From Ilumatobacter sp. (GTDB lineage: Bacteria > Actinomycetota > Acidimicrobiia > Acidimicrobiales > Ilumatobacteraceae), in assembly GCA_020439405.1 (NCBI GenBank), contig JAGQSS010000001.1, positions 31,189 through 95,188 on the forward strand: a stretch of DNA of 64,000 nt. The letters are read 5' to 3'. The translations under genes were made by a program, and so were the position numbers. The notes under the pieces were generated by a model. It was not told the DNA's origin and did no database searches. It saw only the letters and a program-made list of their open reading frames with translations. Below are positions 2,880-28,410 of this stretch, piece after piece. Every line of letters begins with the position of its first letter. The stretch's first letter is position 1.

Positions 2880-3458
2880 TTGGAAGCGAGCGTGGAAACG
2901 ACATACGTGCACCCCTCGGCAACGGTCGAGGAGGGCGCCGATGTGGGCGAAGGCACCAAGATCTGGGCCAATGTCCAGATACGCCGCGGCGCTCGAATCG
3001 GCCGCGAGTGCGTCTTCGGACGAAACAGTTTCGTCGATGTCGACGTGACGGTGGGCGACCGGGTCAAGGTGCAGAACAATGCGTCGCTCTACGAGGGCGT
3101 CACGCTCGAGACCGGGGTCTTCATCGGCCCGCACGTCGTGTTCACGAACGATCTCGTGCCGCGGGCCATCAACCCCGACGGCACGCTCAAGAACACCGAC
3201 GACTGGGTGCTCGGTCGCACGATCGTGCGGCGGGGAGCGGCCTTGGGCGCGTGTACCGTCGTCGTCACCGGCGTCGAGATCGGTGAGTGGGCGATGGTCG
3301 GGTCCGGAGCAGTCGTGACTCGCGATGTCCCGGCCCATGCCTTGGCCGTGGGCAACCCTGCCCGTGTGATCGGCTACGTGAGCGCGTCGGGACAACGATT
3401 CGACACCGCCGAGGCGGCCGCTGCGGCCACCTCGGTCGAGACGGAAGGAACGTCATGA
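2880..3458 (+). CDS. Hexapeptide N-acetyltransferase, WbpD/QdtC-like
   Basis: YVHPSATVEEGADVGEGTKIW, VKVQNNASLYEGV, VFTND..PR and VGNPARVIG. Start may be GTG 2892. Confidence 0.88.
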   Translation: MEASVETTYVHPSATVEEGADVGEGTKIWANVQIRRGARIGRECVFGRNSFVDVDVTVGDRVKVQNNASLYEGVTLETGVFIGPHVVFTNDLVPRAINPDGTLKNTDDWVLGRTIVRRGAALGACTVVVTGVEIGEWAMVGSGAVVTRDVPAHALAVGNPARVIGYVSASGQRFDTAEAAAAATSVETEGTS

Positions 3459-4486
3459 TCGGTGTGGGAGTGATCGGATACGGCTATTGGGGGCCGAACC
3501 TGGTGAGGAACTTCGCTCAAGTGAACGGCGGCGCCGTCGTCGCCGTGTGCGATGCGAACGAGAAGCGACTCGAGGTCGTCGAGAAGCTGTATCCGGCGGT
3601 GGCGACCTACCGCACGGTCGACGAAATGCTCGCCGACCCGGCGGTCGACGCGGTCGCGATCGCGACGCCGGTGAGTTCGCACTTCCCGCTGGCCGAGGCA
3701 GCGCTCCTCGCCGGCAAGCACGTGTTCGTCGAGAAGCCGTTCACCCGGACCTCGGCCGAGGGGGAGCGACTCATCGAGCTGGCCACCGATGCCGGGCTGA
3801 CGCTGATGGTCGACCACACGTTCATCTACACGAGCGCCGTTCGCAAGATCCACGAACTGATCACGACCGGTCAACTCGGTCAGTTGCACTACTACGACTC
3901 GGTGCGCGTCAACCTCGGTCTGTTCCAGAGCGACGTCAGCGTGATGTGGGACCTGGCGGTCCACGACTTGTCGATCATGGATTTCCTGCTCGGCATCGAC
4001 CCGATCACCGTCGCGGCGACCGGCGTCGCCCACGTCGCCGGTCAGCCGGAGAACATGGCGTACATCACGTGCATGTTCCCCGACAATCTCATCGCCCACT
4101 TCCACGTGAACTGGCTCGCACCTGTGAAGGTCCGGCAGACGCTCGTCTGCGGTTCCGAGAAGATGGTGGTGTTCGACGACGTCGACATGAGTGAGAAGGT
4201 GAAGGTGTACGACAAGGGCGTCATCCTCGACGAGGACCCGCGTGAGGTGTATCAGAAGCACGTGGGGTACCGCACGGGCGACATGTGGGCGCCGCGCCTC
4301 GACAACGTCGAGGCATTGGCGCTCGAGACCCAGCACTTCGTCGACTGCATCGTCGACGGGACGACACCGGACTCCGACGGCCACGCCGGACTCCGCGTCG
4401 TGCGGATCCTCGAGGCGGCACAGGAATCGATGACGCACAACGGGCTCCCGGTCGAGGTCCCGAAGATGCGGACGGTGGCCCGATGA
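3455..4486 (+). CDS. Gfo/Idh/MocA family oxidoreductase (WbpB-like nucleotide-sugar C3 dehydrogenase)
   Basis: GYGYWG Rossmann motif, EKP and DLAVHD; ATGA overlap with the upstream gene. Confidence 0.9.
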
Positions 4487-5613
4487 CCGGACCGTCCGAG
4501 ACGCCTGCGCCCGTCCCGTTCGTCGACCTGCGAGCGCAGTACCACTCGATCAAGGACGAGATCGATGCCGCCGTGATCGGCCTGTTCGAGAGCACGCAGT
4601 TCGTGCTCGGCAGCGAGGTCGCGGCATTCGAGTCGTTGTTCGCACCGTACGCCGGGGCCGAGATCGCCCTCGGCACCAGTTCGGGCACGAGCGCGTTGCA
4701 TCTGGCGTTGCTCGCTGCCGGGATCGGTCCGGGCGACGAGGTGATCACGACACCGCACACGTTCATCGCGTCGGTCTCGGCGATCGACTACTGCGGCGCG
4801 ACGCCCGTCTTCGTCGACATCGATCCCGTCTCGTTCACGATCGACCCGGCGGCGATCGATGCCGTCGTGACCGATCGCACCAAGGCGATCCTCCCGGTCC
4901 ACCTGTACGGGCAGACCGCCGACATGGACCCGATCATCGATGTCGCGAGTCGACGCGGACTGTCGGTCGTCGAGGACGCGGCGCAGGCGCACGGCGCCGA
5001 GTACGCCGGACGACGCGCCGGATCGATCGGCGACGCCGGCTGCTTCAGCTTCTACCCCGGCAAGAACCTCGGCGCCTACGGCGAGGGCGGCGCGGTCACG
5101 ACCAGCGACCCCGAGCTGGCGCGCCGGGTCCGGATGCTCCGCGACTGGGGGGCCGAGGAGAAGTACCACCACGTCCTCAAGGGGTTCAACTATCGCCTCG
5201 AGGGTGTCCAGGGCGCCGTGCTGCGCGTCAAGATGGCCTACATCGAAGCATGGACCGAGGCCAGGCGGGCAGCCGCCCGCCGCTACGACGAGTGGCTCGC
5301 CGACGTGGACGTCAGGACGCCGACCGAGGTCGATGGGCGGCGCCACGTGTACCACGTCTACGCGATCCGCACCGACGACCGGGCCGGACTGATGAGCTTC
5401 CTCGCCGACCGCGACATCGCATCCGGCATCCACTACCCGATCCCGGTGCACCTGCAGGAGGCGTTCGCCGAACTCGGTCACGGACGCGGCGACTTCCCCG
5501 AGGCGGAGTCGGCGGCCGATGAGGTGGTGTCCCTGCCGATGTTCCCCGAGATCACCCCCGACCAGCAGGAACGTGTCGTCGACGCGGTCCGCGACTGGTG
5601 CACGAGTCGCTGA
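4483..5613 (+). CDS. DegT/DnrJ/EryC1/StrS aminotransferase (WbpE-like)
   Basis: [38 protein letters not shown] (PLP lysine); ATGA overlap. Confidence 0.93.
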
Positions 5614-5626
5614 ACGGAGACGAGCG

Positions 5627-6601
5627 ATGACGAGTTTCGACAAGGTCGTGGTGACCGGCGGCGCCGGGCTGATCGGCTCCCACATCGTCGACCTGCTGGT
5701 CGCCGGTCGGGAGGACGGCTCCTACGGCGACATCGTCGTGTTCGACAACCTCACCCGTGGACGAATGTCGAACCTGGCCGAGGCGATGGCACGTGGTCCG
5801 GTGGAGGTGATCGACGGCGACGTTCGCGACGTCGCTGCTGTCGATCGTGCGATCGACGGTGCCGACCTGGTGTTCCACCTGGCTGCGATCCGCATCACGC
5901 AATGTGCAGAAGATCCGCGTCTGGCCCACGACGTGCTCGGCACGGGGACGTTCAACGTCGTCGACGCAGCGCACCGGGCCGGAGCGCGCAAGATCGTCGC
6001 CTCGTCAAGTGCGTCGGTCTACGGGCTGGCGGAGCAGTTCCCGACGACCGAGTCGCACCACCCGTACAACAACCGGACGCTGTACGGCGCGCTCAAGGTG
6101 TACAACGAGGGACTGCTGCGCTCGTACCACGACATGTACGGACTGCCGTACGTCGCGCTCCGCTACTTCAATGTGTACGGCCCACGTATGGACACGATCG
6201 GGGTGTACACCGAAGTGCTCATCCGTTGGATGAACCGGATCGTCGCCGGTGAGCCGCCGTTGATCTTCGGCGACGGCAAGCAGACGATGGACTTCGTGTT
6301 CGCCACCGACATCGCGCGGGCCAACATCCTCGCGGCGCAGAGCGACGTCATCGACGAGGTGTTCAACGTCGCGAGCGCCACCGAGACGAGCCTGAACGAC
6401 CTCGCTGCCGCACTGTGCACGGTCATGGGCTCCGACCTCATGCCGGAGTACGGCCCCGAACGGTCCGTCAATCCGGTGCCCCGGCGCCTGGCCGACGTGT
6501 CGGCCGCACGTGAGCGGATCGGGTTCGAGGCCGAGGTCGATCTGGAGGAGGGCCTCCGTCGGCTCGTCGAATGGTGGAGCGCTCTCGAGGAACGGCCATG
6601 A
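5627..6601 (+). CDS. NAD-dependent epimerase/dehydratase (extended SDR)
   Basis: TGGAGLIG, SSASVYG, YGALK (YxxxK) and LRYFNVYGP. Confidence 0.92.
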   Translation: MTSFDKVVVTGGAGLIGSHIVDLLVAGREDGSYGDIVVFDNLTRGRMSNLAEAMARGPVEVIDGDVRDVAAVDRAIDGADLVFHLAAIRITQCAEDPRLAHDVLGTGTFNVVDAAHRAGARKIVASSSASVYGLAEQFPTTESHHPYNNRTLYGALKVYNEGLLRSYHDMYGLPYVALRYFNVYGPRMDTIGVYTEVLIRWMNRIVAGEPPLIFGDGKQTMDFVFATDIARANILAAQSDVIDEVFNVASATETSLNDLAAALCTVMGSDLMPEYGPERSVNPVPRRLADVSAARERIGFEAEVDLEEGLRRLVEWWSALEERP

Positions 6602-7764
6602 CGGCGCCCGTCGCCACCGTGCCGATCGCCAAGCCGGTGATGGGCCAACCGGAGGCCGATGCCGCACAACGGGTCATCTTGTCGGGCTGGATCACGCAGG
6701 GTCCGGAAGTGGCGGCGTTCGAGTCGGAGTTCGCCGAGTTCGTGGGCGCCACACACGCCACCGCAGTGTCGAACTGCACGACGGCGCTGCATCTCGCGCT
6801 CCTCGGGGTCGGTGTCACGTCCGGCGACGAGGTGATCACGGTGTCGCATTCGTACATCGCCACGGCGAACGCCGTGACCTATTGCGGTGCCACACCGGTC
6901 TTCGTCGACGTCGACCGTGACACGAAGAACATCGACTCGGCCTTGGTCGAAGCGGCGATCACCGAACGGACCGCCGCCATCCTGTGCGTGCACCAGGTCG
7001 GCCTGCCGTGCGACCTCTCGTCGCTCGCCGCCATCGCCCGTCGTCACGGACTACCGCTCGTCGAGGACGCGGCGTGTGCGATCGGGAGCGAGATCCGCTG
7101 GGATGGCGACTGGCAGCGAATCGGTCGTCCGCACGGCGATGTCGCGTGCTTCTCGTTCCACCCGCGCAAGGTCATGTCGACCGGCGACGGCGGGATGTTG
7201 ACCACCGACGACGCCGAACTCGACGCCCGGTTCAAACTGCTCCGCCAACACGGCATGTCGGTGAACGACCGGGCCCGTCACACCTCCTCGAGCATCATCT
7301 TCGAGGAACACGCCGTGATCGGTTTCAATTACCGGATGACCGACATCCAGGCGGCTGTCGGCCGTGAACAGCTCAAGCGCATGGCCGGGATCGTGGCGAG
7401 GCGCCGCGAGATCGCGGCGACCTACGACACTGCGTTCCAGGAGGTCGAGGGGATCGAGCCGCCGTTCGAACCGGAGTGGGCACGTACCAACTACCAGAGC
7501 TACATCGTGCGAATCCCGGACGGTGTCGAGCAGCGCGACTTCATGCAGCGCCTCCTCGACGACGGTGTCTCGTCGCGACGCGGGATCATGAACGCACACC
7601 GCGAGGCGCCGTACCGCGGCGTCCACGACCTCCCGGTCTCGGAGTGGGCGCAGGATCGACACGTGGTGTTGCCGTTGTACCCCGCGATGACCGACGACGA
7701 GATCGAGCGAGTGATCGCGACCGTCTCGCTGACCGCGCGAACTCCGGGAGCCGTGGCCGGGTGA
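6598..7764 (+). CDS. DegT/DnrJ/EryC1/StrS aminotransferase (second copy)
   Basis: NCTTALHL, EDAACAIG, FSFHPRKVMSTGDGG and GFNYRMTD; ATGA overlap. Confidence 0.93.
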   Translation: MTAPVATVPIAKPVMGQPEADAAQRVILSGWITQGPEVAAFESEFAEFVGATHATAVSNCTTALHLALLGVGVTSGDEVITVSHSYIATANAVTYCGATPVFVDVDRDTKNIDSALVEAAITERTAAILCVHQVGLPCDLSSLAAIARRHGLPLVEDAACAIGSEIRWDGDWQRIGRPHGDVACFSFHPRKVMSTGDGGMLTTDDAELDARFKLLRQHGMSVNDRARHTSSSIIFEEHAVIGFNYRMTDIQAAVGREQLKRMAGIVARRREIAATYDTAFQEVEGIEPPFEPEWARTNYQSYIVRIPDGVEQRDFMQRLLDDGVSSRRGIMNAHREAPYRGVHDLPVSEWAQDRHVVLPLYPAMTDDEIERVIATVSLTARTPGAVAG

Positions 7765-9506
7765 CCGGTCCGACGTCCAACGTCGACGTCTTCGAACGGC
7801 TTCGCGGCTACGACGTACCGCCCCCACCCGATTTCGCCGATGTCACCTCACCGGAGGTCCTCGAGCGGTACGGCATCAGTGGCCGGCCGCTGAGCCGGGC
7901 GCTGGCCGGAACAGTATTCGCCGCATCCGGTCTGCGGTCATTCGCGCGGATGCCCGACGTCGATCGCGAGCGCGTCCTCCGAGCCGCCGATTCGCGCCGT
8001 TACGACCACCCATTGGCGCTCGTCGCCACCCTGACACTCCGAGACGACCCGCTCCATCGAACGCTGCGTTCGCGCGCCACGAGCCTGGTCGTGGCGGCGG
8101 CATCGCTCGCCGTCGAGGTTCGGAGCGGCAGGTACGAGCAGATCCGGCGTCCATCCGGGGCTCCGGAGGAGATGGGCCAGTACCCCAACCTGTTCGGGAC
8201 GGGACTGCACTTCGTCGGCCCGGAGACCGAGTTCCGCCGAACCTCCTCACCGTCCTCACTCGCCGTCGCGTGTCGGGGCCGCCTGTTCCTCGTCGAATTC
8301 GGGCCGCTCTCGACCTGGAGCGCCGCTCGTATCGACGACGCGCTCGGTCGCATCCTCGACGACGACACGCCCGGCAACCAGCCGTTCGGGCTGGTGTCGG
8401 CGACCTCCGAGCACGTTCGCGGACCTCTGATCGACCGGATCCGATCGGAATCCGCGGGCGCTCGAGTGCTCGATCGGCTCGAGGAAGCGCTGTTCACGTT
8501 ATGTCTGCACCCGGACGACGACGGCGGGACGCCGTCCGAACTGTTCGCGAGTGTGCACGGTCGTGTCAACGTCGACCGGTGGTTCGGGTCGAGTCTCCAG
8601 TTCGTCGTGCACCGCGACGGTGGGGCGGCGGCGATCGCCAACTTCCGAGCCTGGCTCGATGGGAACACCATGATTCGCGGTGTCGGTGACATCAGCCGGG
8701 GAGCGCGATCCGTTCCGACGATCTCGGCGCCGGATCGGTCAGCGAGCGCGGCGATCGACGAGTTGAGAGCGGAACTGCCGGAATCGATCGCCGAGAGGGC
8801 AGCGATCGATGTCGCAGGGCACCTGCGCGCGTGGTCACGTCCGCTCGCCGATATGCCGTGGGGTGAAGCCGACCTTCGTGCGGAGGGGGTCGCCGCCGTC
8901 GACTCGTTCACGATCGCTGTCGCCCTCGCTGTCCGTCGACGTGTCGGAACGGTTCCGATGATCGGCCAGGCGGTTTCGGCGTCGGGGTTCGCGTGCGGTG
9001 AACTCCAGTTCGCACAGGTGCCTGCGTCGGAGTTCGGCGCCGCGATCGACGCGCTGACCGATCCGTATCGCCCCATCGAGGAGCGGGCGGCGGCAGTACG
9101 CGAGGCCGCGATAGCACATCGTCAGGCTCTTCGACAGGTCCGCAGTGTGGTGCAAATCGATGCACTCCGTCGCATCCGTGACGCCTCCCGAACACAGCAG
9201 TGGCCACGACGGTTGGAGGACCTCGGGCTCCGGCTCCTCCGCGGACTGCGGTGGTTCGACCCCACCACGCCGTCGGTGTTGCTGTCGCACCCGACGATCG
9301 ATGAGGAGTTCACGGCCTTGGGTCGCCCGGGCGCATTGATGCCGTGGTGTCGCCACTACGCGTTGCACTACCGCATCGGTGACCGAACGACGCAGGTTGC
9401 GCTCGCCGGTGGACCTGAGCTCTCCGAGTCGGACGACGAGGTGTGGTCCGATCTCGAACGTGCGCTCGCCGACGTGGTCGCCGCCGTCGACGGGCTCAGG
9501 CCATGA
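7761..9506 (+). CDS. Choline/carnitine O-acyltransferase-fold protein (divergent)
   Basis: MGQYPNLF, AVACRGRLF, LEEALFTLCL and HG..NVDRWFGSSLQFVVHRDG...NFRAWLDG resemble the CrAT/CPT motifs (MxQYxxLF, IExALFxLCLD, NRWFDKSLQF, EHSxxDG). GTGA overlap with the DegT gene. Confidence 0.72.
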   Translation: MTGPTSNVDVFERLRGYDVPPPPDFADVTSPEVLERYGISGRPLSRALAGTVFAASGLRSFARMPDVDRERVLRAADSRRYDHPLALVATLTLRDDPLHRTLRSRATSLVVAAASLAVEVRSGRYEQIRRPSGAPEEMGQYPNLFGTGLHFVGPETEFRRTSSPSSLAVACRGRLFLVEFGPLSTWSAARIDDALGRILDDDTPGNQPFGLVSATSEHVRGPLIDRIRSESAGARVLDRLEEALFTLCLHPDDDGGTPSELFASVHGRVNVDRWFGSSLQFVVHRDGGAAAIANFRAWLDGNTMIRGVGDISRGARSVPTISAPDRSASAAIDELRAELPESIAERAAIDVAGHLRAWSRPLADMPWGEADLRAEGVAAVDSFTIAVALAVRRRVGTVPMIGQAVSASGFACGELQFAQVPASEFGAAIDALTDPYRPIEERAAAVREAAIAHRQALRQVRSVVQIDALRRIRDASRTQQWPRRLEDLGLRLLRGLRWFDPTTPSVLLSHPTIDEEFTALGRPGALMPWCRHYALHYRIGDRTTQVALAGGPELSESDDEVWSDLERALADVVAAVDGLRP

Positions 9507-12490: not shown

Positions 12491-13252
12491 ATGGCCGGCT
12501 CCGATGTACTTGTCGCCGCGGGGCGCCGAGTCGTCGACCGCGTGGGCACTGCGTGCCTCCAGCCGCCGCGGCTCGCCTGGAGATCGCAGTTCTCGGCCGG
12601 CGATCCCGCATCGACGACCGTCGCGCTGACCTTTGATGACGGGCCCGCCCCACCCGCCACCGGTCGCACGCTCGATGCGCTGAAGGCATTGGACGTGAAG
12701 GCGACCTTCTTCGTCGTGGGGGCGATGGCGGCGGCGCGGCCGGATCTCGTTCGCCGACTCCACGACGACGGGCACCTGATCGGCAACCACTCGATGTATC
12801 ACAGCCGAACACAGTCACTGGCTCCTGGACGTGAGCGATTGGATCACATCCGCGCTGCGGACGACGCCGTGTGGCGGGCAATCGGTCGACGGCCACGTTT
12901 CTATCGGCCCCCGTGGGGCTGGATGACGAGGTGGGAACGTCGACGCGCGGAGGCATTCGGGTTGGTGCCGATCGGTTGGGACATCGACGCAGGCGACTGG
13001 CAGGTGCCGGAGCAACCGGCATCGGTCACCGCCCGGACCGTCACGGACCGAGTGCGGCCCGGTTCGGTGATCCTCATGCACGACGCAACCTCCAACGTCG
13101 ATCCGTGTGACAAGGTCGAGACGGCGAAGGCCCTGGAACGAATCGTCGAACGGGTTCGGGCGAACGGCCTCGAGTTCGCTCGGATCGACGAACTGACGGG
13201 TCTCCAGCCGTACCGGCCCGTTCCGGCCGATGTAGATCGCCCGAGCAGTTGA
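12491..13252 (+). CDS. Polysaccharide deacetylase (NodB/CE4)
   Basis: All CE4 motifs present: TFDDGP, NHSMYH, RPPWG, DW and ILMHD. Confidence 0.93.
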   Translation: MAGSDVLVAAGRRVVDRVGTACLQPPRLAWRSQFSAGDPASTTVALTFDDGPAPPATGRTLDALKALDVKATFFVVGAMAAARPDLVRRLHDDGHLIGNHSMYHSRTQSLAPGRERLDHIRAADDAVWRAIGRRPRFYRPPWGWMTRWERRRAEAFGLVPIGWDIDAGDWQVPEQPASVTARTVTDRVRPGSVILMHDATSNVDPCDKVETAKALERIVERVRANGLEFARIDELTGLQPYRPVPADVDRPSS

Positions 13253-14019
13253 GCCGACAATTCGGTCCGGTGCGGCAACTTCCGCAGCGAGCCATCGATG
13301 CTGCCGCGAGACGCTTCAACCGGTGGGCGTCTCCGGGTGTGCCGATCGAGTCGCTCCTGAGCCTCGAGTCCGATTCGGCGGCGGTGAGCGCCGAGCTCGT
13401 CCTGCGCTCGGTTCGCGCCGTGTCGGCGATCGACCTGGTGACCGGCTACCTCGACAACCGATTCGTCCTCGGAGGCTACGACGAGACCGGGGCGCATCAC
13501 TTTCGGTGGTGCACGACGCCTGAGCGGGCGGTCATCACACGTGCCACAGGCCGGATGCCTCGCGACGTCCGACGCCGTCTCGACCGGGCCGAGTTCGACA
13601 TCGTCTTCGACGTCGAACTCCGTGCGATACTCGAGGGCTGCCGAGAAGGTCGCGACTCCTGGCTCACCGATGAGCTGATCGACTTGTACGTCGAACTCGA
13701 CGATCTCGGCTTCATGTCGACCGTCGCGACGTACCGAGACGGTGACCTCGTCGGTGGCTACGCCGGAATCCGTGTTGGCGGTTGCTTCGCTGGTCTCAGT
13801 CGATTCCATCGGGCGCCCGGAGCCGGTTCGGTCGCCTACGGTGCACTCGTGGCCGCCCTCCTCGACGGGACGGGACCGTCGATGATCGACAGCGGGCCGA
13901 TGAGTGACCACGTCGCTCGGTTCGGCGCAATCGCTCGCGATCCGGAGGTGCATCGTCGGGCCGTACTCGAGGGATTGGCCGCCCGCGGTCGTCGCTCGAG
14001 CGGCGACGGGCCGGAATGA
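13249..14019 (+). CDS. Leucyl/phenylalanyl-tRNA-protein transferase (Aat)-like protein, divergent
   Basis: WCTTPERAVI, ILEGC, SWLTDELIDLY, GDLVGGYAGIRVGGCFAGLSRF and MIDSG..DHVARFGA follow Aat (WWSPDPRAVL, VIEGC, TWIT..Y, ELVGGMYGV..GTLFCGESMF, LIDCQ..DHTASLGA). Overlaps both neighbours by 4 bp. Confidence 0.8.
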   Translation: MSRQFGPVRQLPQRAIDAAARRFNRWASPGVPIESLLSLESDSAAVSAELVLRSVRAVSAIDLVTGYLDNRFVLGGYDETGAHHFRWCTTPERAVITRATGRMPRDVRRRLDRAEFDIVFDVELRAILEGCREGRDSWLTDELIDLYVELDDLGFMSTVATYRDGDLVGGYAGIRVGGCFAGLSRFHRAPGAGSVAYGALVAALLDGTGPSMIDSGPMSDHVARFGAIARDPEVHRRAVLEGLAARGRRSSGDGPE

Positions 14020-15509
14020 GCGCGACCGCACGCGCAGGGCGTCGACTCGTCGACAACATCGTCGCACTGGTCACGTCACAACTGCTGGGTTGGGTGATGA
14101 GCATCGTGCTCATCGTCGTGGTCTCGCGCTCCATCGGAGCGGTCTCGGTCGGTCATCTCCAGGTGGCCACCACGTGGTGGGCACTTGCTGCGGTGTTCAT
14201 CGGCGCCGGCACTTCGACGGTCGTCACGCTCGACGTCGCGCGGGATCGCGACGCCGGTGCGACGCTGCTGGGTGCCGTCTACCGGGCTCGGCTACTGGTG
14301 TTCGTCCTGGTGACGGGTGTGGTCGCGCTCGCTTCGGCTCTGCTCGGCCAACCGCTCGAGCTGCGCCTGTTGCTCGTCGTACTGGGCGTCAACGCCTTGT
14401 TCACCACGTTCGCCGACGTGGCGGGTTCGACCTTGCAGGGTTACGAGGACCTGGTGGCACCATCCCGGATCGCGGTGATCTCGCGATTCATCGGTGTGGT
14501 GCCGGTACTGATCGCCGTGACCGTCTTCGACGCGCAGGTCATCGTCGTCGCGGTGATCGGCGCCGTTGCGAGCGCCGTTGCGGTCGTCCTGCTCCACCAG
14601 CAGGTTCGAACCTATTGCACGATCTCGTACGTCGCCGACTCGGCAGCCGTTCGGGCGGTGCTCCGACGTGGGCTGCCGTATCTCGGCGGAGCGCTCGCGC
14701 TCACCCTGTATCGCGAGATCGACGTCTTCGTCATGAGCGCGTTGCTCGACTTCGAGCCGCTCGGCTGGTATGCCGCGGCCGATCGACTGGTCAGCTCGAC
14801 CTTGTTCCTGCCGACGGTGGTCGCGGCGGCGTTCTTCCCGGTCGTCGCCCGCATGCACGCCGCCGACGAACGCGAAGCGACGCACTGGTTCGGGAAGGTG
14901 TTCGACTCGATGCTGCTGGTCAGCCTGCCCGCGGGACTCGGTCTCGTCGTCGTGGCCCAGCCCCTGGTCGATCTGGTGCTCGGTGACGAGTTCAGTCGCG
15001 CAGGACCGGTCTTGGCCCTGCTCGGAGTGATGCTGATCTTCACGTTCCACACCACCCTGGTCGGGCAGTTCGCTGTTGCGACAGGTCGCGAGGTTGCCCT
15101 GTACCTGACCGTGTTCGGTGCCGCGCTCCTCACCATTCCGCTCGATCTCGCCTTCGTGCCGTGGACCGACCGCCGCTACGGGAACGGTGCGATCGGCGGG
15201 GCGTTGTCGTACATCGTCACGGAGGTGGTGATCCTCGTCGTGGGCGTGGTGTGGATCGCGCCCGGCATCGTCACACGGTCGTCGGGAGTCCGGGTCGCCA
15301 AGTGCGCCGTTGCGTCCGGTGTCATGGCGGTCGCCGCATGGCAGCTCCGCGAGTTGCCGATCGTCGTCCCCGTCGCCGTGGCCGGCGGCATCTATGTCGT
15401 CATGCTGGTCGTCCTGAGGGTCCTCCACCCCGATGAGCTCGATCGCGTCGAGCGGGCCGCCGCGCGAGTGCGTCGACGGTTCGGCTCAGCGACCGACGAT
15501 GGTGCGTGA
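14016..15509 (+). CDS. Wzx-like oligosaccharide flippase (MOP superfamily)
   Basis: About 14 hydrophobic segments, with YREID..LGWYAAA and FFPVVAR. Confidence 0.9.
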   Translation: MSATARAGRRLVDNIVALVTSQLLGWVMSIVLIVVVSRSIGAVSVGHLQVATTWWALAAVFIGAGTSTVVTLDVARDRDAGATLLGAVYRARLLVFVLVTGVVALASALLGQPLELRLLLVVLGVNALFTTFADVAGSTLQGYEDLVAPSRIAVISRFIGVVPVLIAVTVFDAQVIVVAVIGAVASAVAVVLLHQQVRTYCTISYVADSAAVRAVLRRGLPYLGGALALTLYREIDVFVMSALLDFEPLGWYAAADRLVSSTLFLPTVVAAAFFPVVARMHAADEREATHWFGKVFDSMLLVSLPAGLGLVVVAQPLVDLVLGDEFSRAGPVLALLGVMLIFTFHTTLVGQFAVATGREVALYLTVFGAALLTIPLDLAFVPWTDRRYGNGAIGGALSYIVTEVVILVVGVVWIAPGIVTRSSGVRVAKCAVASGVMAVAAWQLRELPIVVPVAVAGGIYVVMLVVLRVLHPDELDRVERAAARVRRRFGSATDDGA

Positions 15510-16478
15510 ACGCGCTGCGAGCCGAGCGAGCGGTCTCGGCCGGTCGTACCGAATGGTGTGTCGAACATCGCACACCGGAGCGAATCTCCGCTTGTAGTCG
15601 CTGTACCCACCGAGATCGATTCGTTCGAGACCCGACTCGGTCGCCAGGCGGAACGTCTCGTCGATCAATCTGGTCCCGAGTGATCCTCTGGACCAGGAAA
15701 CGTCGCGCGCCGTGATGAGGCCATACACGACGCCCGACGCGACTTCGTTGACGTTGGCCGCCACGTAGTCGCCGCGGTGGCGGAGCCCGACGACGAACAA
15801 CCGGCCGGCCGCGAGGCGCCCGGGCCAGACCCGTTCCATGTCGGCGGCCGCTCCGGTCTCGTCGCTCTGGTGCTCTGACCAGTTCGACCGCCAGTTGTCG
15901 ATCGCCCAGGTGAGGGCACCGACGTCGCCGACGACGGCTTCCACCTCGGCGGTCCGGCCACGCGTCGCTCGCACGTCCTTCCATGCCTTGGACGACCGCC
16001 AGTAGTGCTCGTGTCGGCCATCGAGCGCCATGCCGTGCACTGCGAATGGTATGGCGGTCGACCCCGGGTACCGTGCGGGCGACTCGAACGTCTCCGGTAC
16101 CACGATGTCGTGTCCGATCATGTCCAGACCGTGGTCGTGCGCCCCTGACGACACGTTGCCGCCGATCACCACCGTCGCGGCCACAGGTTCCCAGTGCTGC
16201 TGACGCCGGCGGAGTGTCGAGACGAGGACGGGTTCACCGCGTCGGGAAACGACGACGTGCAGCTTCGGTCGATCGGTCGGCCGGGCGAGTTCGGCCACCT
16301 CGGCCGTCGAGAGCCCGGGCGGTGGACCGAGCCGTGCCAGGGCATCGTCGTGCACCGCCGTCCACACCGGCGATGTGTCGACGTCGTAGCCAGACGTACG
16401 TGCCCTGCCCCGGACGAGGACGTCGATGGCCCGTTCCCGCATCGCTGCGACCGACGAATGCGATGTCACGCGCTTCAC
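15486..16478 (-). CDS. GNAT family N-acyltransferase (CelD/BcsL/FemAB-like)
   Basis: C-terminal SLGTRLI..GLERIDLGGYSDYKRRF. GTG start at 16478 overlaps the upstream TGA. Confidence 0.72.
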   Translation of the reverse strand: MKRVTSHSSVAAMRERAIDVLVRGRARTSGYDVDTSPVWTAVHDDALARLGPPPGLSTAEVAELARPTDRPKLHVVVSRRGEPVLVSTLRRRQQHWEPVAATVVIGGNVSSGAHDHGLDMIGHDIVVPETFESPARYPGSTAIPFAVHGMALDGRHEHYWRSSKAWKDVRATRGRTAEVEAVVGDVGALTWAIDNWRSNWSEHQSDETGAAADMERVWPGRLAAGRLFVVGLRHRGDYVAANVNEVASGVVYGLITARDVSWSRGSLGTRLIDETFRLATESGLERIDLGGYSDYKRRFAPVCDVRHTIRYDRPRPLARLAARSRTIVGR

Positions 16479-17101
16479 ACGGCCAACAGGTTCGAGTGAT
16501 CGCACCGCCGGACGGCCGCCTCCGAGTGCAACTCGTGACGCAGCTCCGAGACTGCCCGCCCGTCGTCGAGGACGCGGGGAACGTCGACCTCGACGATCTG
16601 TCCACCGACCGAGCGCGCGAGCCCGATCGCTCGGACATTGGTGCTGAGCGTCGTGGCCGTGAGACGGGGCTGCCCGAAGTGATGCACCAGAAAGTGGACG
16701 GCGAGCCCGATCGCGGCGGTTCCGACGCCCGAACTCCGGCACTCCTGCCGGACCGCGACTCCGATGTTCGGGACGTTCTCGCTGTCGATCTGGATGAAAA
16801 TGCCGCCGACGACACCTTCGTGCTGATCCGCTTCGATACCGAAGATGATGCCGTTCTGGTGGTACTGGGTGGGTCGACGGTCGAAGCGGCGCCACCACGG
16901 CTCGGACGAGACGAGTGAGGTCATCCGATCGTCGCCGTAGCCGAGGAACGACTGTGCCTCTCGATCGATGAGGCACGCATTGATCGCGCCGAGATGACGC
17001 CGCTGGGGCGTGAACACTCGGACGCCGTTCGCGCGGAAGTCGTGCTCACGCTCGCCGCACCGAACAAGAAACGCCCCGCCGTCGAAGGCTTCCTCCCGCA
17101 T
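16475..17101 (-). CDS. GNAT family N-acetyltransferase (RimJ/RimL-like)
   Basis: IGVAVRQECRSSGVGTAA (acetyl-CoA loop) and TNVRAIGLARSVG. Confidence 0.75.
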   Translation of the reverse strand: MREEAFDGGAFLVRCGEREHDFRANGVRVFTPQRRHLGAINACLIDREAQSFLGYGDDRMTSLVSSEPWWRRFDRRPTQYHQNGIIFGIEADQHEGVVGGIFIQIDSENVPNIGVAVRQECRSSGVGTAAIGLAVHFLVHHFGQPRLTATTLSTNVRAIGLARSVGGQIVEVDVPRVLDDGRAVSELRHELHSEAAVRRCDHSNLLAV

Positions 17102-17183: not shown

Positions 17184-17918
17184 ATGATGCGAGCAACAGA
17201 TCTGGTGTACGCAGTCGGCGACCCGGTGCTGACGAAGCTGTTGTCGCCGCCGCACGGCGGTCGTCGACACTACGTCAACCACGGGCCTCGAACCGAGCGT
17301 CGCGTGGCGCTCACCTTCGACGACGGGCCCTGCCGGGGCTCGACCGAGCGACTCCTCGATGCGCTCGGCGAACTCGAGGCGCCCGGCACCTTCTTCTGCG
17401 TCGGCGAGAACGTGCGGTTGAACCCCGAACTGGTCGAGCGGCTCGACCGTGAAGGACATGTCGTGGGGAGCCACTCCGAACGACACAGCCGCGGCGCCGG
17501 GCTCTCGTTCGGCGACACCGAGCACATCCTCGCCGCCGAACGTCGGATCGCCACGGTGCTCGGCAAACGGCCGGCGCTCTACCGACCGCCTTGGGGTTGG
17601 CTGACCCCGTGGGAGGGGAGGCGCCTGCAACGGCTCGGCTACACGATCATCGGGTGGGACGTCTACACGCTCGACTGGCAGATCCCCGAGCCCGACCCCG
17701 CCGATGTGGTGTCGGCGGCGATCGCCGACACCGAACCGGGTTCGATCTTCTGTTTCCACGACGCGTTCCCGCTGGAGGCCGCCTGGGACAAGGACGTCAC
17801 CGTCGACACGATCCGCGAACTCGTCCCCCGGCTGCGGTCGATGGGCTATGAGTTCGTCACCGTCAGCGACCTGCTCGGGGTCGACGCGTATCGAGCGATC
17901 GAGGACGTTGCAGCATGA
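17184..17918 (+). CDS. Polysaccharide deacetylase (NodB/CE4), second copy
   Basis: TFDDGP, SHSERH, RPPWG and FHD; paralogue of 12491-13252. Confidence 0.92.
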   Translation: MMRATDLVYAVGDPVLTKLLSPPHGGRRHYVNHGPRTERRVALTFDDGPCRGSTERLLDALGELEAPGTFFCVGENVRLNPELVERLDREGHVVGSHSERHSRGAGLSFGDTEHILAAERRIATVLGKRPALYRPPWGWLTPWEGRRLQRLGYTIIGWDVYTLDWQIPEPDPADVVSAAIADTEPGSIFCFHDAFPLEAAWDKDVTVDTIRELVPRLRSMGYEFVTVSDLLGVDAYRAIEDVAA

Positions 17919-21841: not shown

Positions 21842-22983
21842 CGCTGTACCTCGTCGTAGATGTCCATCAGCTGTCGGGCTACTCGATCGGCAGAGTAGTG
21901 CGCGCGTACGCGGTCGCCGGCGGCCCGTTCGATCGAGGCGCGAAGGGCATCGTCGTCGAGTAGCCGGCCGGCGAACTCGGCGATCGACGTCGGGTCGTTC
22001 GGACGAGCGCAGAAGCCGCTGTCGCCGTGCTGCACCGCCTCGAGGTCGCCGCCGAAGGTGATGATGCAAGCCCGCTGCATCGCCATTGCCTCGAGCAGTC
22101 CGATCGACGCGGACCCGAACGGAACCGGGAGCACGAACACGTCCATGAGGCGTATGTGAAGCGACGGATCGGTCTGGAATCCGACGAACCTCACCGCTCC
22201 GTCGAGCCCCGCGGTGCTCGCGCGATGCTCGAGGTCGGCTCGGAGCGAGCCATCGCCGACGACGAGCAGCACGGCGTCCGGGTGGTCGGGCCGGAGCAGG
22301 GCGAACGCGTCGACGAGATCGTCGACGCCCTTGTCGGGTTCGAGCCGGATCGCCGTACCGACGACCGGCGCCCCAGGCGCGATGCCGAGGTCGGATCGAA
22401 GCGCGTCGAGTTCGTCGGGTTCGGGCTGTGGTTCGAACTTGTCCACGTCGATGCCGTTGTCGACCACGACGGTCGTGCACGGCGCGACGCCGAGGTAACG
22501 CTCGCGTGATTGCCGGTTGTTCTCCGAGACGCACACCAACGTCCGGATCAGCCGGGTGGTCAGACCTCGGATGCGGCGGGACTTCGCCGAGACCGGCGCC
22601 TCAGGAGCGAGGTGCTCGGTCATGACGATGCCGCGGACACCCGCCGATCGCAGTGCGAGGATGGCGACGGAGAAGCCGCGATAGGTCGTGCTGTGGAGGT
22701 GGACGGCATCGAAGCGTTCGCGGCGTGCGAGTCCCCACAGTCCGAATGCGTCCCGGAGCTGTCGGACCAAGCCGTAGCGGCGGTCGGGAGCGAGGAGGGT
22801 CACCGAGTCGGATGCCGTCACCATCGACCGGTGGAACTCTTCGGTTGCCGGCCAGTCCGGTACTGCGGTGTGCACCGTGAACCGGCTCCGGTCGATCTCC
22901 TTGGCGAGGAGTCGGACGTGTTCCTCCATGCCCCCCATCGCCACACTGTTGGTCATGAGCAGCAGCTTCTTGTTCGCCGTCAT
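21838..22983 (-). CDS. GT4 family glycosyltransferase
   Basis: GGMEEH, NGID, RLEPDKG and LLEAMA. Confidence 0.9.
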   Translation of the reverse strand: MTANKKLLLMTNSVAMGGMEEHVRLLAKEIDRSRFTVHTAVPDWPATEEFHRSMVTASDSVTLLAPDRRYGLVRQLRDAFGLWGLARRERFDAVHLHSTTYRGFSVAILALRSAGVRGIVMTEHLAPEAPVSAKSRRIRGLTTRLIRTLVCVSENNRQSRERYLGVAPCTTVVVDNGIDVDKFEPQPEPDELDALRSDLGIAPGAPVVGTAIRLEPDKGVDDLVDAFALLRPDHPDAVLLVVGDGSLRADLEHRASTAGLDGAVRFVGFQTDPSLHIRLMDVFVLPVPFGSASIGLLEAMAMQRACIITFGGDLEAVQHGDSGFCARPNDPTSIAEFAGRLLDDDALRASIERAAGDRVRAHYSADRVARQLMDIYDEVQR

Positions 22984-23100
22984 CGGTCCCGCCCTTCCTG
23001 CTCCTTTGGAACGTCGAACGTCCGCCCCGGAGTCCGAACCGACGATATCGTCCCGTCGGTGACCGGAAAACGGGATTCCCCAGCACCAGGGGGCCCCCCG

Positions 23101-24585
23101 GTGCCGTCACCGGCCGACGAGGTGGGTGTCGAGACGGATCGGCGAACGGTCGTCCAGAACGTCGCCGATCTCATGTCGTCACAAGCGATCACCTGGATCC
23201 TCGCGACCGTCCTGACCATCGTCCAGCCGCGGTTCCTCGGCCCGGAAGGTCAGGGCCAGCTCCGCCTCGCCTATTCGGTCTGGATGATCGTCGACGTGCT
23301 CGTCGCGCTGGGCACGTCGACATCGCTGACGCTCGCCATCGCGAAGGACCGTGAGCGAGGCCTCGCGATGATCCGCCCCGTTCTGACCATTCGCGCATGC
23401 GGCTACGTCGCTTCATGGGTCGCGGTCGTCGGCTATCTCCTGGCGTCGGGCGCAGGGTCGACCCAGACCTCGGTCATCGTCCTGATCGGTGTCGTCTCGA
23501 TGTTCGGCAGCGTCGCTGGGACCGCTCGATCGGCGTTGCTCGGTCTCGAATACATGCGCTACCCCGCCATGGCCGACGTCGTGACCAAGATCGTCGCAGT
23601 GGTGTCGGTCGTGACCGTGCTGGTTCTGGGAGGCGGTGTCGTCCTCGTCGCGGCGGTCGGCGTGGCGACGTCGGCGCTCAATGCGGTTCTGATGGTGAGG
23701 TTCCTCCGGCGTTTCCCACGACCCAACTGGCACCAGACGATGCGATTCGTCCTCACCGTGTCAGCCGGGCTCATGGTGGCGGACGCAGCATTGATCCTGT
23801 ATCAGCAGGTCGACACGGTCGTGATGTCGTTGCTCGTCGGCGACGAAGCGCTCGGCTGGTATGCGACGGCCGATCAGCTCTTCGGGTCATTGCTGTTCGT
23901 GCCGACGATCCTCGTGACGACGCTGTTCCCCGTCTTCGGTCGGTTGCACGAACAGGATCCTGCCCGACTCCGTCATGTGATCAGCCGCGCCATGGCGTCG
24001 GTTCTGCTGCTCACGGTGCCGATCGGTCTCGGAGCGGTGGCGATCGGACGGCCGCTCGCCCGCTTCCTCTTCGGCGACGAGTTCGATGGTGCGGGTCAGG
24101 TGCTGATGGTGCTCGGCGTCGTGCTCATCATCACGTCGGAGACGATCCTGATCGGCCGGTATGCGATCGCCACGCGTCACCAACGACTCTGGAACGTGGT
24201 GATGGTCGCAGCCGTCCTGTTGACCATCCCGCTCGACATCGTGCTCGTGCCGTGGACCGACGGCCGCTACAGCAACGGCGCCATCGGCGGAGCCCTCGCC
24301 TACGTCGTCACCGAGACCCTGATGCTCACGGTCGGTCTCGTGTGCTTCGGCCGGCAGGTGGTCACGCGAGCGACGGTCGGCCGGATGGCTCGGACGTTCG
24401 CCGCCGGGTTCGTCATGCTCGGTGTCATCTGGCCGCTACGCGATCGACCCCTCGTCGTTCCGTTGGTCGTCGGCGGACTCGTGTACGCGGGTGCGATCGT
24501 CGTCCTGCGAGCCCTCGGCCCCGAGGAGCGACGCGCGATCGATGGCGCGACGCGTTTGATCCGGGGGCGCCTCGGCCGTCGATAG
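23101..24585 (+). CDS. Wzx-like oligosaccharide flippase, second copy
   Basis: Multi-TM protein sharing LGWYA.AD and IPLD..VPWTD.RY.NGAIGGAL.Y.VTE with 14016-15509. Start is approximate. Confidence 0.88.
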   Translation: MPSPADEVGVETDRRTVVQNVADLMSSQAITWILATVLTIVQPRFLGPEGQGQLRLAYSVWMIVDVLVALGTSTSLTLAIAKDRERGLAMIRPVLTIRACGYVASWVAVVGYLLASGAGSTQTSVIVLIGVVSMFGSVAGTARSALLGLEYMRYPAMADVVTKIVAVVSVVTVLVLGGGVVLVAAVGVATSALNAVLMVRFLRRFPRPNWHQTMRFVLTVSAGLMVADAALILYQQVDTVVMSLLVGDEALGWYATADQLFGSLLFVPTILVTTLFPVFGRLHEQDPARLRHVISRAMASVLLLTVPIGLGAVAIGRPLARFLFGDEFDGAGQVLMVLGVVLIITSETILIGRYAIATRHQRLWNVVMVAAVLLTIPLDIVLVPWTDGRYSNGAIGGALAYVVTETLMLTVGLVCFGRQVVTRATVGRMARTFAAGFVMLGVIWPLRDRPLVVPLVVGGLVYAGAIVVLRALGPEERRAIDGATRLIRGRLGRR

Positions 24586-24631: not shown

Positions 24632-25858
24632 ATGGCGACGGTGGCGGGCGGTGCCTCCCGCCCGAGTGCACAGGCGAGCGGACGGATCGACTCGCTGACG
24701 GGTCTGCGTTTCGTCGCTGCGCTGTCGGTGCTCGTCGAGCACTTTCCCGAGCTCGTTCCAGGAGTCTCGCCCGAACGGTTGGCCCAGGGCGGTGGCGGCG
24801 TCTCGCTGTTCTTCGTGCTGAGCGGATTCCTCCTCACCGTCCGGTACCGGGCGTCGCTGGGCGACCGGCCGGGCAGGGCGAGGTATCGATTCGGACGCGT
24901 GACCCGGATCGCGCCGCTCCATGTAGCAGCACTGGCGATCGTCGTGCCCATCGTCGTGATCCAGAGCGATCCGTTCACGACCTACGGTGCGGGACGGGCC
25001 ACCGTGTCGGTGCTCGCCAATCTCGGTCTCGTCCATGCCTGGGTCCCGGCCCAGGTGATGTACATCTGGAACGGGCCGGCGTGGAGCATCTCGGTCGAGA
25101 TGTTCTTCTACGCGATGCTCCCGGTGCTCCTCGTCGCCATCTCGGGCCGACACACCACGCGAGCCCCTGCCCGCCTGATCGCAGCGCTCCTCGCGGCCCA
25201 GACGTTCGTCTGGCTCATCGGGTCGTGGCTCGTCGGCCGGTTCCTGCTCAGCCGATCCGACGACATCGTCGGTACCCGGTTGATCGTTTCACGCCTCGCC
25301 AACATCCCGGCGTTGCGCGTCGGGGAGTTCGCGGCGGGTTGTCTCGTCGGCGTCGTATTCGCGTCGCGCGCCGCCGGCGCCCGTCCCTGGCCGCGTCTCG
25401 AATCGCCTCGATTTCGTCTCGGACTCCTCCTGGCCGCGATCGCTGCCGTCGTGGCGATCCAGTTCACCCCGTCCTGCCCGGCGACAGCGTGTTATCCCGA
25501 CGCTCAGAACGCCGCCGCGCTGATCGATCTCCGCTTGTTCGCCGTGTATGCGCCGATCGCCGTCGTCGTCATCGCAGCGTTGGCCTGGGGGCCCACCCCG
25601 ATCGGGCGGCTCCTCGAGCGGCCGACGATGGTGCGCCTCGGCGAGGCGAGCTACGCGCTGTACATCTTCCAGTGGATTCCGTGGCTACTGCTCTACGACG
25701 GCGGCCGGACGGAGCGTGGGTTCTGGCCGGTGTTTCTCACGGTCGTCGCGACGGTCATCGCGTCGGTCGCGATCCACCGCTGGTTCGAGGTGCCGGTCGA
25801 TCGCACACTGAGGCGTCGCCGCGAGTCACGACAGGCGGTCAGCCGAACAGACGCTTGA
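24632..25858 (+). CDS. Acyltransferase family 3 (OafA/YrhL-like) membrane O-acyltransferase
   Basis: SLTGLRF..V..H, FFVLSGF, R..RI.P, WSISVE.FFY, LGEASYALY and FE.P. Confidence 0.92.
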   Translation: MATVAGGASRPSAQASGRIDSLTGLRFVAALSVLVEHFPELVPGVSPERLAQGGGGVSLFFVLSGFLLTVRYRASLGDRPGRARYRFGRVTRIAPLHVAALAIVVPIVVIQSDPFTTYGAGRATVSVLANLGLVHAWVPAQVMYIWNGPAWSISVEMFFYAMLPVLLVAISGRHTTRAPARLIAALLAAQTFVWLIGSWLVGRFLLSRSDDIVGTRLIVSRLANIPALRVGEFAAGCLVGVVFASRAAGARPWPRLESPRFRLGLLLAAIAAVVAIQFTPSCPATACYPDAQNAAALIDLRLFAVYAPIAVVVIAALAWGPTPIGRLLERPTMVRLGEASYALYIFQWIPWLLLYDGGRTERGFWPVFLTVVATVIASVAIHRWFEVPVDRTLRRRRESRQAVSRTDA

Positions 25859-26879
25859 GCGCATCAGCGTCGCCGACCTCGTCGGCGACGCCACGGTGGT
25901 ACTCGATGGCGTACACCGCGCTGAGCAGGACTCGTGGTACGCGTGTCCCGCCGAGCCGCGCCGCCGCCTTGGCAACAGCACCCGCTGATGTCGCCGTCGC
26001 CCTGGCGAGCGTCGGCCGGGTGGCCGTCGCCCTGATGAGCCAGCGGAGCGGTGTGCGGTGTTCGTCGAGCTTCTCGCCGATGAACGAAAAGATCCAGTCC
26101 TCCCCGCGATCGCGGGCGAACACGACGTCGTTGCGACCGTAGGTGTACGCGGCCGTTCGCCAGGAGTCGTAGCTCCGTTCGGCGTAGTGGAATCCGACGG
26201 CCTCGGGTAGGTAGCGAAAGCGGAGGCCGGCGTGCTCGAGCCGGTAGGCGAGTTCGACGTCTTCGGCGCGGCGGAAGTTCTCGTCGAATCCGCCGACCGC
26301 GTCGAGGTGGCAGCGTCGGATGGCCGCATTGCCGGTGTAGAACTGGCGGGCGGTCGCCTCGTAGACACCTTTCCGCATCGCCTCGTACTGCTTGCGGAGC
26401 ATGAGCTGTTCCCAGCGGACCCAGGCCGACATGTCGTGGTCGTCCGGGTCGAGCATCGGACCGATCGTGACGAGGGAGTCGTCGATGGCGTGTTCGTCGA
26501 CGTGGCGCCGGACGAGATCGGGTGCCGCCACGACATCGTCGTCCAGGAACACGATCAGATCACCGTGCGACTCGGCGACGCCGCGATTCCGTGCGGCGGC
26601 CGGTCCGGCGTTCGCCTGGCTGACTCGTCGAACGGGCAGGGGTACGTCGGTCGACGCGAGATACTCGTCGGTCCCGTCGGTCGAGCCGTCGGAGACGACG
26701 ACGACCTCGAAGGGCACGCCGGCGTCTTGGGCGGCCAGCGATCGCAGCACGCGTTCGAGCCGTTGCCGCCGGTTGTACGTCGGCACGACGACGCTGACCG
26801 AGAGCGAGCAGCCGAGGGATTCTGCCGACGGGGCGTCGCCCGTCGTCGGTGCTGGTGTCACGGCGAGTGCGGACTCCAC
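25839..26879 (-). CDS. GT2 family glycosyltransferase
   Basis: SVVVPTYNR, DGSTD, FLDDD and GGFDENF..ED. Confidence 0.92.
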   Translation of the reverse strand: MESALAVTPAPTTGDAPSAESLGCSLSVSVVVPTYNRRQRLERVLRSLAAQDAGVPFEVVVVSDGSTDGTDEYLASTDVPLPVRRVSQANAGPAAARNRGVAESHGDLIVFLDDDVVAAPDLVRRHVDEHAIDDSLVTIGPMLDPDDHDMSAWVRWEQLMLRKQYEAMRKGVYEATARQFYTGNAAIRRCHLDAVGGFDENFRRAEDVELAYRLEHAGLRFRYLPEAVGFHYAERSYDSWRTAAYTYGRNDVVFARDRGEDWIFSFIGEKLDEHRTPLRWLIRATATRPTLARATATSAGAVAKAAARLGGTRVPRVLLSAVYAIEYHRGVADEVGDADALKRLFG

Positions 26880-28279: not shown

Positions 28280-28410
28280 GTATCCCACGGTACCGCCCAC
28301 GTGGCCGCTTGCGCGTTCGTTTCGGCAGGGTGACGGAGCACGGTCGGGCTGCCGTCCACGGTGGCACCCGCCGAGCCGGCGTGCGCTCGAGACACGGCGA
28401 GGCAAAAGGA

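Follow-up and report, generated by a model that had tools for sequence, protein, structure and literature searches.

The canonical aminoacyl-tRNA transferase Aat (L/F-transferase) transfers Leu or Phe from tRNA to N-terminal Arg or Lys of proteins, tagging them as N-degrons. Here, an Aat-like gene is described at positions 13249–14019 of a 64,000-nucleotide stretch from Ilumatobacter sp. (assembly GCA_020439405.1, contig JAGQSS010000001.1, positions 31,189 to 95,188; hereafter, the window), where it lies between genes for a polysaccharide deacetylase and a flippase. Its product belongs to an Aat subfamily that is real, apparently not described before and rewired at the acceptor site, and that has plausibly been recruited to glycan tailoring. 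In Escherichia coli Aat, E156 and Q188 anchor the Arg or Lys side chain of the acceptor, and the donor pocket is formed by M144, F153, L170, F173 and I185 (PMC4964394). The tRNA is docked by R76, R80, K83 and R84 (PMC4105747), while Q188 and D186 constitute a proposed proton relay, with a route through the tRNA hydroxyl as the published alternative (bioRxiv 2022.07.20.500667).

The chemistry proposed below resembles that of Orf11 (BD-12), Sba18 and Sbb17, FemX-fold enzymes that transfer the amino acid of an aminoacyl-tRNA to an amino-sugar amine (PMC12945691; PDB 9wqw–9wqy). The Aat-like protein shares the GNAT superfamily with these (Z = 11.0 to 9wqx), but they are double-GNAT FemX-type proteins from antibiotic pathways, whereas it is only 12–13% identical to them and is encoded in a Wzx/Wzy locus; the PF13480 GNATs that neighbour it resemble them weakly. 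In the valanimycin pathway, the tRNA-dependent GNAT-fold transferase VlmA follows an oxygenase and uses an acceptor that is small and not a protein (PMC12945691). The oxygenase link parallels a monooxygenase pairing seen in three other genomes (G106, G802 and G846, see below), although VlmA is not of the Aat family and the monooxygenase here is nearest to Rv3094c/HsaA-type enzymes. For the Caulobacter holdfast, the authors propose acyl transfer by the FemX-like GNAT HfsK to amines exposed by the deacetylase HfsH (PMC5362036). That system likewise ties a cytosolic deacetylase and a FemX-like GNAT to exopolysaccharide loci, but has no Aat-family protein. A deacetylate-then-acylate scheme, which is also that of an earlier sequence-only reading of the window, has already been proposed for HfsH/HfsK, and for the kind of PF13480 protein that neighbours the present gene. 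No account of an Aat-family protein in glycan tailoring was found in the literature searched, most subscription papers lying outside its scope.

The Aat-like gene is the second of three successive genes:

12491–13252, + strand: NodB/CE4 polysaccharide deacetylase (PF01522, 98.1 bits; motifs TFDDGP, HSMYH, RPPWG and LMHD), without a hydrophobic signal stretch
13249–14019, + strand: Aat-like transferase of a branch lacking E156 and Q188, 256 amino acids (aa) from a TTG start (PF03588, 102.7 bits, E = 2e-29)
14016–15509, + strand: one of the locus's two Wzx-type flippases (PF01943, 73.4 bits; PF13440; NF041871, 94.1 bits, under its cut-off)

That the second gene encodes an Aat homologue, as the sequence-only reading had claimed, was borne out by family and by fold. 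Its score against PF03588 (Leu_Phe_trans) exceeded the cut-off of 22.7 bits, but it reached 82.3 bits against the canonical aat equivalog TIGR00667, where the cut-off is 143.55; this cut-off was missed by all nine branch proteins scanned. A structure model was obtained with AlphaFold2 from 45 branch sequences (pLDDT 89.5, against only 32.7 for a two-sequence model), and its best structural matches were E. coli Aat structures (Foldseek E = 2.2e-15). Superposition on E. coli Aat 2dps gave Z = 20.5, with a root-mean-square deviation of 2.9 over 200 residues, and the next entry was FemA (Z = 11.2). The protein had no PF13480 match and FemA, FemX and Sbb17 reached Z = 10.6–11.2, which places it outside the double-GNAT FemX type. 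A separate canonical aat was present on another contig of the same genome (G000, 79% complete); this second PF03588 gene has GESMF and DVQ, and scored 184.5 bits against TIGR00667. All four branch-bearing genomes with known gene context also had a canonical aat, beside which the branch protein is a rare second copy. A PF03588 match was present in 39 of 40 relatives; a second full-length copy occurred in none of them, and two had two matches to complementary parts of the profile.

Alignment with E. coli Aat located the following elements of the window protein, all on the + strand:

13561–13587, + strand: basic helix R105–R113, corresponding to the tRNA-docking cluster R76/R80/K83/R84 (here R, R, D, R)
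13660–13662, + strand: W138, equivalent to W111, which every branch row keeps (62 of 62)
13792–13806, + strand: GLSRF in place of GESMF (G155-E156-S157-M158-F159), comprising E156L, a loss seen branch-wide, and M158R, seen in 2 of 62 rows
13810–13827, + strand: RAPGAG loop in place of RMENAS, with S166G branch-wide (61 of 62 rows) and K167 lost
13888–13896, + strand: DSG in place of DCQ (D186-C187-Q188), with D186 kept and Q188G

The letters and alignment of GLSRF and DSG agreed with the earlier description. The acceptor-anchoring residues of canonical Aat, E156 and Q188, are L183 and G216 in the window protein, whereas R105, R109 and R113 of the tRNA-docking helix and the 3'-adenosine-stacking W138 are retained; Asp occupies the E. 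coli K83 position and Leu the W49 position. Donor pocket residues M144, F153, L170, F173 and I185 correspond to Y171, F180, Y197, L200 and I213, and R185 stands at M158, a residue that the sequence-only reading places in the donor pocket. The pocket is hydrophobic across the branch, and bulkier and more polar in the window copy. To judge from Y171, R185 and Y197, this copy may use a smaller or polar donor, and M158R with Y171 and Y197 may change its donor; most of the branch probably takes a hydrophobic one. Of the earlier claim that both pockets were altered, the acceptor part was upheld across the branch, whereas the altered donor pocket is a private trait; as a branch marker M158R was rejected on its count of 2/62 rows. 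The GLSRF and DSG substitutions also occurred in a 64–67% identical homologue and are therefore not assembly noise, and contigs of two further runs lie on the gene, within which no difference is listed.

An exhaustive search returned 2268 proteins at E = 0.001; of the best 150 that were examined, 54 belonged to the class with the branch motifs and 7 were unscorable. The alignment comprised 196 rows (189 scorable) and the class 62, including a few near-duplicates; P0075 was removed from the class, as it lacks E156 but keeps K167 and Q188. E156, K167 and Q188 were jointly lost, with G166 present, in 61 of the 62 rows, while 102 of the 127 others showed none of these changes. E156 was replaced by Met (54/62) or Leu (6/62) and Q188 by Gly (55/62), giving the branch consensus xMSMF/DCG; GLSRF/DSG itself was found only in the window protein and one homologue. 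The Aat-like protein is about 30% identical to E. coli Aat, and the branch otherwise shares with the latter the fold, W111, D186 (58/62), S157, F159, the basic helix (with a net charge averaging +3.7, compared with +4.5) and five hydrophobic pocket positions (55–62/62); W111, G143, G146 and S157 are invariant within it. It differs in the loss of K167, in the replacements at E156, S166 and Q188, and in a V-L consensus at E. coli F47-P48, and the N-terminal part of the Aat-like protein is about 30 residues longer.

A FastTree phylogeny of 161 rows, built without sequences shorter than 190 aa and without some two thirds of the canonical copies from the relatives, placed 57 class rows on one side of a single branch with support of 100. 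Support was 98 when the 17 motif columns were removed, and SH-aLRT was 94 in IQ-TREE with 55 rows. Named members came from Balneolaceae and Thermoguttaceae; the branch spans distant groups but is rare. Searches with a branch profile, made in overlapping draws of genomes, matched 4 of 401 genomes in the window's family, 2 of 396 in its order, 2 of 401 in its class and none of 331 in another class; in a phylum draw 19 of 401 matched, 17 of these scoring 156–170 bits and keeping E156 and Q188. No branch member was found in metagenome contigs (two scans), viral contigs or phages, nor in the genome contig collection (one weak 35% locus, its motifs unread by the pattern) or the plasmid collection (28–35% matches, annotated aat where named). 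Longer fused forms were absent at E = 1e-25, which is weak evidence. Five Aat copies of one family (L039, L040, L042, L050 and L053) keep E156 and Q188 but have AGN, AGS or GGN in place of ASK, and would represent an intermediate state that has lost K167 alone.

The three genes belong to a surface-glycan locus of the Wzx/Wzy type, about 45 kb long, and sit in its variable middle part. Besides a priming transferase and many GT2 and GT4 glycosyltransferases, the locus contains an amino-sugar operon and two copies each of Wzx and NodB deacetylase. Both junctions proved to be 4-bp overlaps, TTGA and ATGA, as the sequence-only reading had described; the first hinges on the assumed TTG start of the Aat-like gene, for which GTG at 13270 is an alternative, and public records for its cluster give 256, 249 or 226 aa. 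Because such overlaps are usual in the locus (of 14 listed pairs of successive + strand genes, 10 have one), they indicate a likely operon and no special coupling. A promoter-like site was sought and none was found. The window's DNA is present in activated-sludge runs; one RNA run contained a 219-base piece of the deacetylase and no transferase piece among the matches listed, and contigs were uninformative on expression. Facing the flippase is a gene absent from the sequence-only reading:

15486–16478, − strand: FemX-like GNAT (Pfam PF13480) with a basic helix and a D-x-G...YK motif

A homologue of this GNAT is fused to an Aat-like domain of the branch in the metagenomic protein P0061. The FemX-like GNAT is the predicted partner of the Aat-like enzyme for which there is evidence of fusion. 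Both NodB deacetylases of the locus, the Aat-like transferase and the PF13480 GNAT lack any hydrophobic stretch above 1.4 (19-residue hydropathy scale) and are probably cytoplasmic; for the transferase and the deacetylase, the lack of a predicted membrane or signal stretch suits a user of aminoacyl-tRNA.

Gene context was seen in four genomes, the window's own (G000), G106 (complete, another genus), and G802 and G846 (one genus, 86–88% complete); G355 (complete, the window's genus) was also compared. In G000 and G106 the branch gene lies in the same Wzx/Wzy glycan locus, and in G802 and G846 outside any glycan locus. Within the orthologous locus of G106, the gene overlaps the second DegT transaminase gene by ATGA and faces two PF13480 GNATs, with a 52% identical deacetylase about 6 kb and a wzx about 10 kb away. 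Common to the two loci are a FemX-like GNAT, the orthologous deacetylase and transaminases for amino sugars. The G106 glycan locus also encodes an acyl carrier protein and a protein with an FkbH domain (L037:6461–8652, − strand), which suggests glyceryl-type glycan acylation. The orthologous locus of G355 lacks the branch gene and has no match to the deacetylase beside it or to the PF13480 GNAT; it has instead a different NodB and a different PF13480 GNAT, together with a PIG-L deacetylase, a dioxygenase and an AMP ligase whose neighbour is a likely carrier protein. As these are other amine-acylating genes in place of those of the window, the genes in the middle of the locus, which make or acylate amines, look like a set that can be exchanged. 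At the position of the G000 tailoring genes, G355 has a pyridoxal-phosphate-dependent decarboxylase with the AMP ligase and the small likely carrier protein (L083:10476–13725, − strand), and also a PhyH-type dioxygenase and a pyruvyl transferase. The coupling of deacetylase, transferase and flippase suggested by the sequence-only reading did not hold, since their order is not conserved, being broken by the distances in G106, and G802 and G846 have no deacetylase match. The check that it proposed, for recurrence of homologues near glycan genes, gave such a case in G106 and not in G802 or G846, and the GLSRF/DSG form recurred in a single further homologue.

Beside the observed fold, branch, residue changes, canonical aat elsewhere and neighbourhoods, the best explanation is tRNA-dependent aminoacylation of a cytoplasmic glycan precursor by the Aat-like enzyme, a chemistry we infer and to which we assign a probability of about 0.55. 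The same idea in the sequence-only reading is thus partly sustained, by fold, paralogy, residue loss, the G106 locus and the cytoplasmic prediction, but not by conserved coupling. DegT transaminases, the NodB deacetylase or both would supply sugar amines; the FemX-like GNAT at 15486–16478 would place a first amino acid on the amine, and the Aat-like enzyme, whose ancestral chemistry is alpha-amino acylation, would add a second residue to this non-basic aminoacyl group. Aminoacylation would take place in the cytoplasm, before the repeat unit is flipped by Wzx, and the monooxygenase, where present, may further oxidise the added residue. This order, with the GNAT acting before the Aat-like enzyme, is the most economical version and is offered tentatively; a relay onto a non-basic aminoacyl group would explain both the selective loss of the Arg/Lys-gripping E156 and Q188 and the fusion. 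It is equally tentative that such a two-step, ribosome-free relay draws on charged tRNAs to give a Wzx/Wzy surface polysaccharide side chains that are dipeptides. Direct transfer to an amino sugar made by DegT, and direct transfer to an amine freed by the deacetylase, the acceptor put forward by the sequence-only reading, are two somewhat less likely versions of the same explanation.

Several observations weigh against aminoacylation of a glycan. In G802 and G846 the branch gene is tail to tail with an HsaA/Rv3094c-type flavin monooxygenase outside any glycan locus, adjoining an amino-acid ABC importer and with no glycan gene nearby. Neither genome, at 86–88% completeness, had a match to the window's deacetylase or GNAT, though PF13480, NodB and DegT genes occur at other places in both; those of G802 form a glycan cluster of a different make-up on another contig. 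Context comes from four genomes only, or about three independent cases, of which one is the preselected window. The G000 and G106 copies are 38% identical and their shared ancestry was not rejected (approximately unbiased (AU) test, p = 0.285), so that they may represent one recruitment; the claim that they are demonstrably independent recruitments was rejected on this result. In favour of the glycan reading, a control found a glycan gene within about 1.5 kb in 0 of 33 canonical aat loci and in 2 of 4 branch loci, against a genome background of 1.8%, but its glycan queries were drawn from these same loci and the window was preselected. Also in its favour, a profile of six PF13480 GNATs from these genomes had Sba18, Staphylococcus aureus FemX and Sbb17 as its first PDB matches (E = 4e-4 to 4e-3), but these matches are weak and come from a mixed profile, and the window's GNAT alone had no match in the PDB under E = 0.99. 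Finally, loss of Q188 may impair catalysis under the proton-relay mechanism; since a tRNA-hydroxyl route has been published, Q188G need not abolish activity.

It is rather unlikely that the branch still labels proteins, on non-basic N-termini, as an N-degron transferase of variant specificity that happens to travel with variable loci. Aat itself is the nearest structure by a wide margin, the donor side is intact, glycan context is absent from two of the four genomes, and acceptor switches are known, as Bpt acts on Asp or Glu (PMC4052509); nevertheless, such a role fits poorly with a gene that, in two genera, overlaps its operon neighbours amid glycan genes, with the fusion to a PF13480 GNAT, or with a very patchy presence beside an intact canonical aat. 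The monooxygenase that travels with the branch gene raises another explanation:

G106 L036:13637–14908, − strand: HsaA/Rv3094c-type flavin monooxygenase
G802 L057:8256–9599, + strand: HsaA/Rv3094c-type flavin monooxygenase
G846 L059:3617–4885, + strand: HsaA/Rv3094c-type flavin monooxygenase

The core unit could be the Aat-like enzyme and this monooxygenase, making or modifying a small aminoacyl metabolite as in valanimycin biosynthesis, with glycan loci borrowing it secondarily, although this is quite unlikely. The G802 and G846 monooxygenases are 50% identical to that of G106, so that the pair occurs in three of the four genomes; of five genomes tested, matches at that level occurred only in G106, and in G802 the pair and the amino-acid ABC importer lie between two genes adjacent in G000. 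The pairing is likened to hydroxylation of the VlmH type followed by transfer. For the transfer step, VlmA provides a precedent (PMC12945691). Set against this, there is no orthologue in G000 (best match about 30%; the genome is 79% complete and its Gfo-DegT junction is closed by an ATGA overlap), and the G106 monooxygenase lies within the sugar-nucleotide operon, between the Gfo dehydrogenase and the first DegT. The monooxygenase was also considered as a nitrososynthase of the KijD3/ORF36 kind; this was rejected, as no such entry occurred among its 15 PDB matches at E = 1e-5, though the chemistry could still apply.

A reversion to ordinary GNAT chemistry, the acyl-CoA-dependent N-acylation of an amino sugar, is improbable. 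The window protein has R-x-x-G-x-G at residues 188–193, resembling R/Q-x-x-G-x-G/A, the CoA-pyrophosphate loop motif of GNATs; S166G is near-invariant in the branch, and the gene can fill the slot after DegT that is held in G000 by a carnitine-acyltransferase-like gene. However, the full pattern was present in only 3 of 62 branch rows while the Aat loop length was kept in all 62, and W111, the basic helix and the donor pocket are retained. Highly improbable is a decaying or inactive paralogue carried in a variable region, to which low G+C at third codon positions (0.75, against 0.84–0.94 in most neighbours) and the loss of two catalytic-site residues might point: the frames are open, the branch is deep with invariant W111, G143, G146 and S157 and includes members in Balneolaceae and Thermoguttaceae, and the substitutions are coordinated rather than random.

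Other features of the glycan locus were as follows:

2880–7764, + strand: amino-sugar operon of hexapeptide acetyltransferase, Gfo dehydrogenase, DegT transaminase, epimerase/dehydratase and second DegT transaminase (60–86% orthologues in G106 and G355)
7761–9506, + strand: carnitine/choline acyltransferase-like gene (PF00755, 72 bits) in the slot after the second DegT, which the Aat-like gene occupies in G106
16475–17101, − strand: single-domain GNAT (Acetyltransf_3, Pfam)
17205–17918, + strand: second NodB/CE4 deacetylase (Pfam and motifs)
30436–31878, + strand: priming sugar transferase (PF02397)

The acyltransferase-like gene at 7761–9506 overlaps the second DegT of the amino-sugar operon, and had no close match elsewhere in the G000 genome or in the G106 and G355 loci; its product may be another amino-sugar acyltransferase. 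Both NodB deacetylases keep most or all CE4 motifs. Upstream of the window are genes whose counterparts in the G106 and G355 loci are the Wzy_C and WecG genes there (45–58% identity). The second Wzx-type flippase (22510–24585, + strand) lies beside an Acyl_transf_3 membrane acyltransferase (24632–25858), and a locus with two Wzx may export two different repeat units. A likely lipoprotein or anchored protein of 515 aa (26858–28405, − strand) had no Pfam or NCBIfam match and has a 60% homologue in the G106 locus; several unannotated secreted proteins similar to it flank the locus upstream.

A branch without the acceptor-gripping residues provides a natural test of whether Q188 is needed in Aat catalysis. 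If it acts on glycans, as is proposed here, it would offer a concrete, assayable route to amide-linked amino acids on surface polysaccharides, until now a suggestion made for HfsK and other FemX-like proteins. No earlier Aat-family enzyme would then have used an acceptor other than a protein, and the surface chemistry of a sludge bacterium would be tied to its translation.

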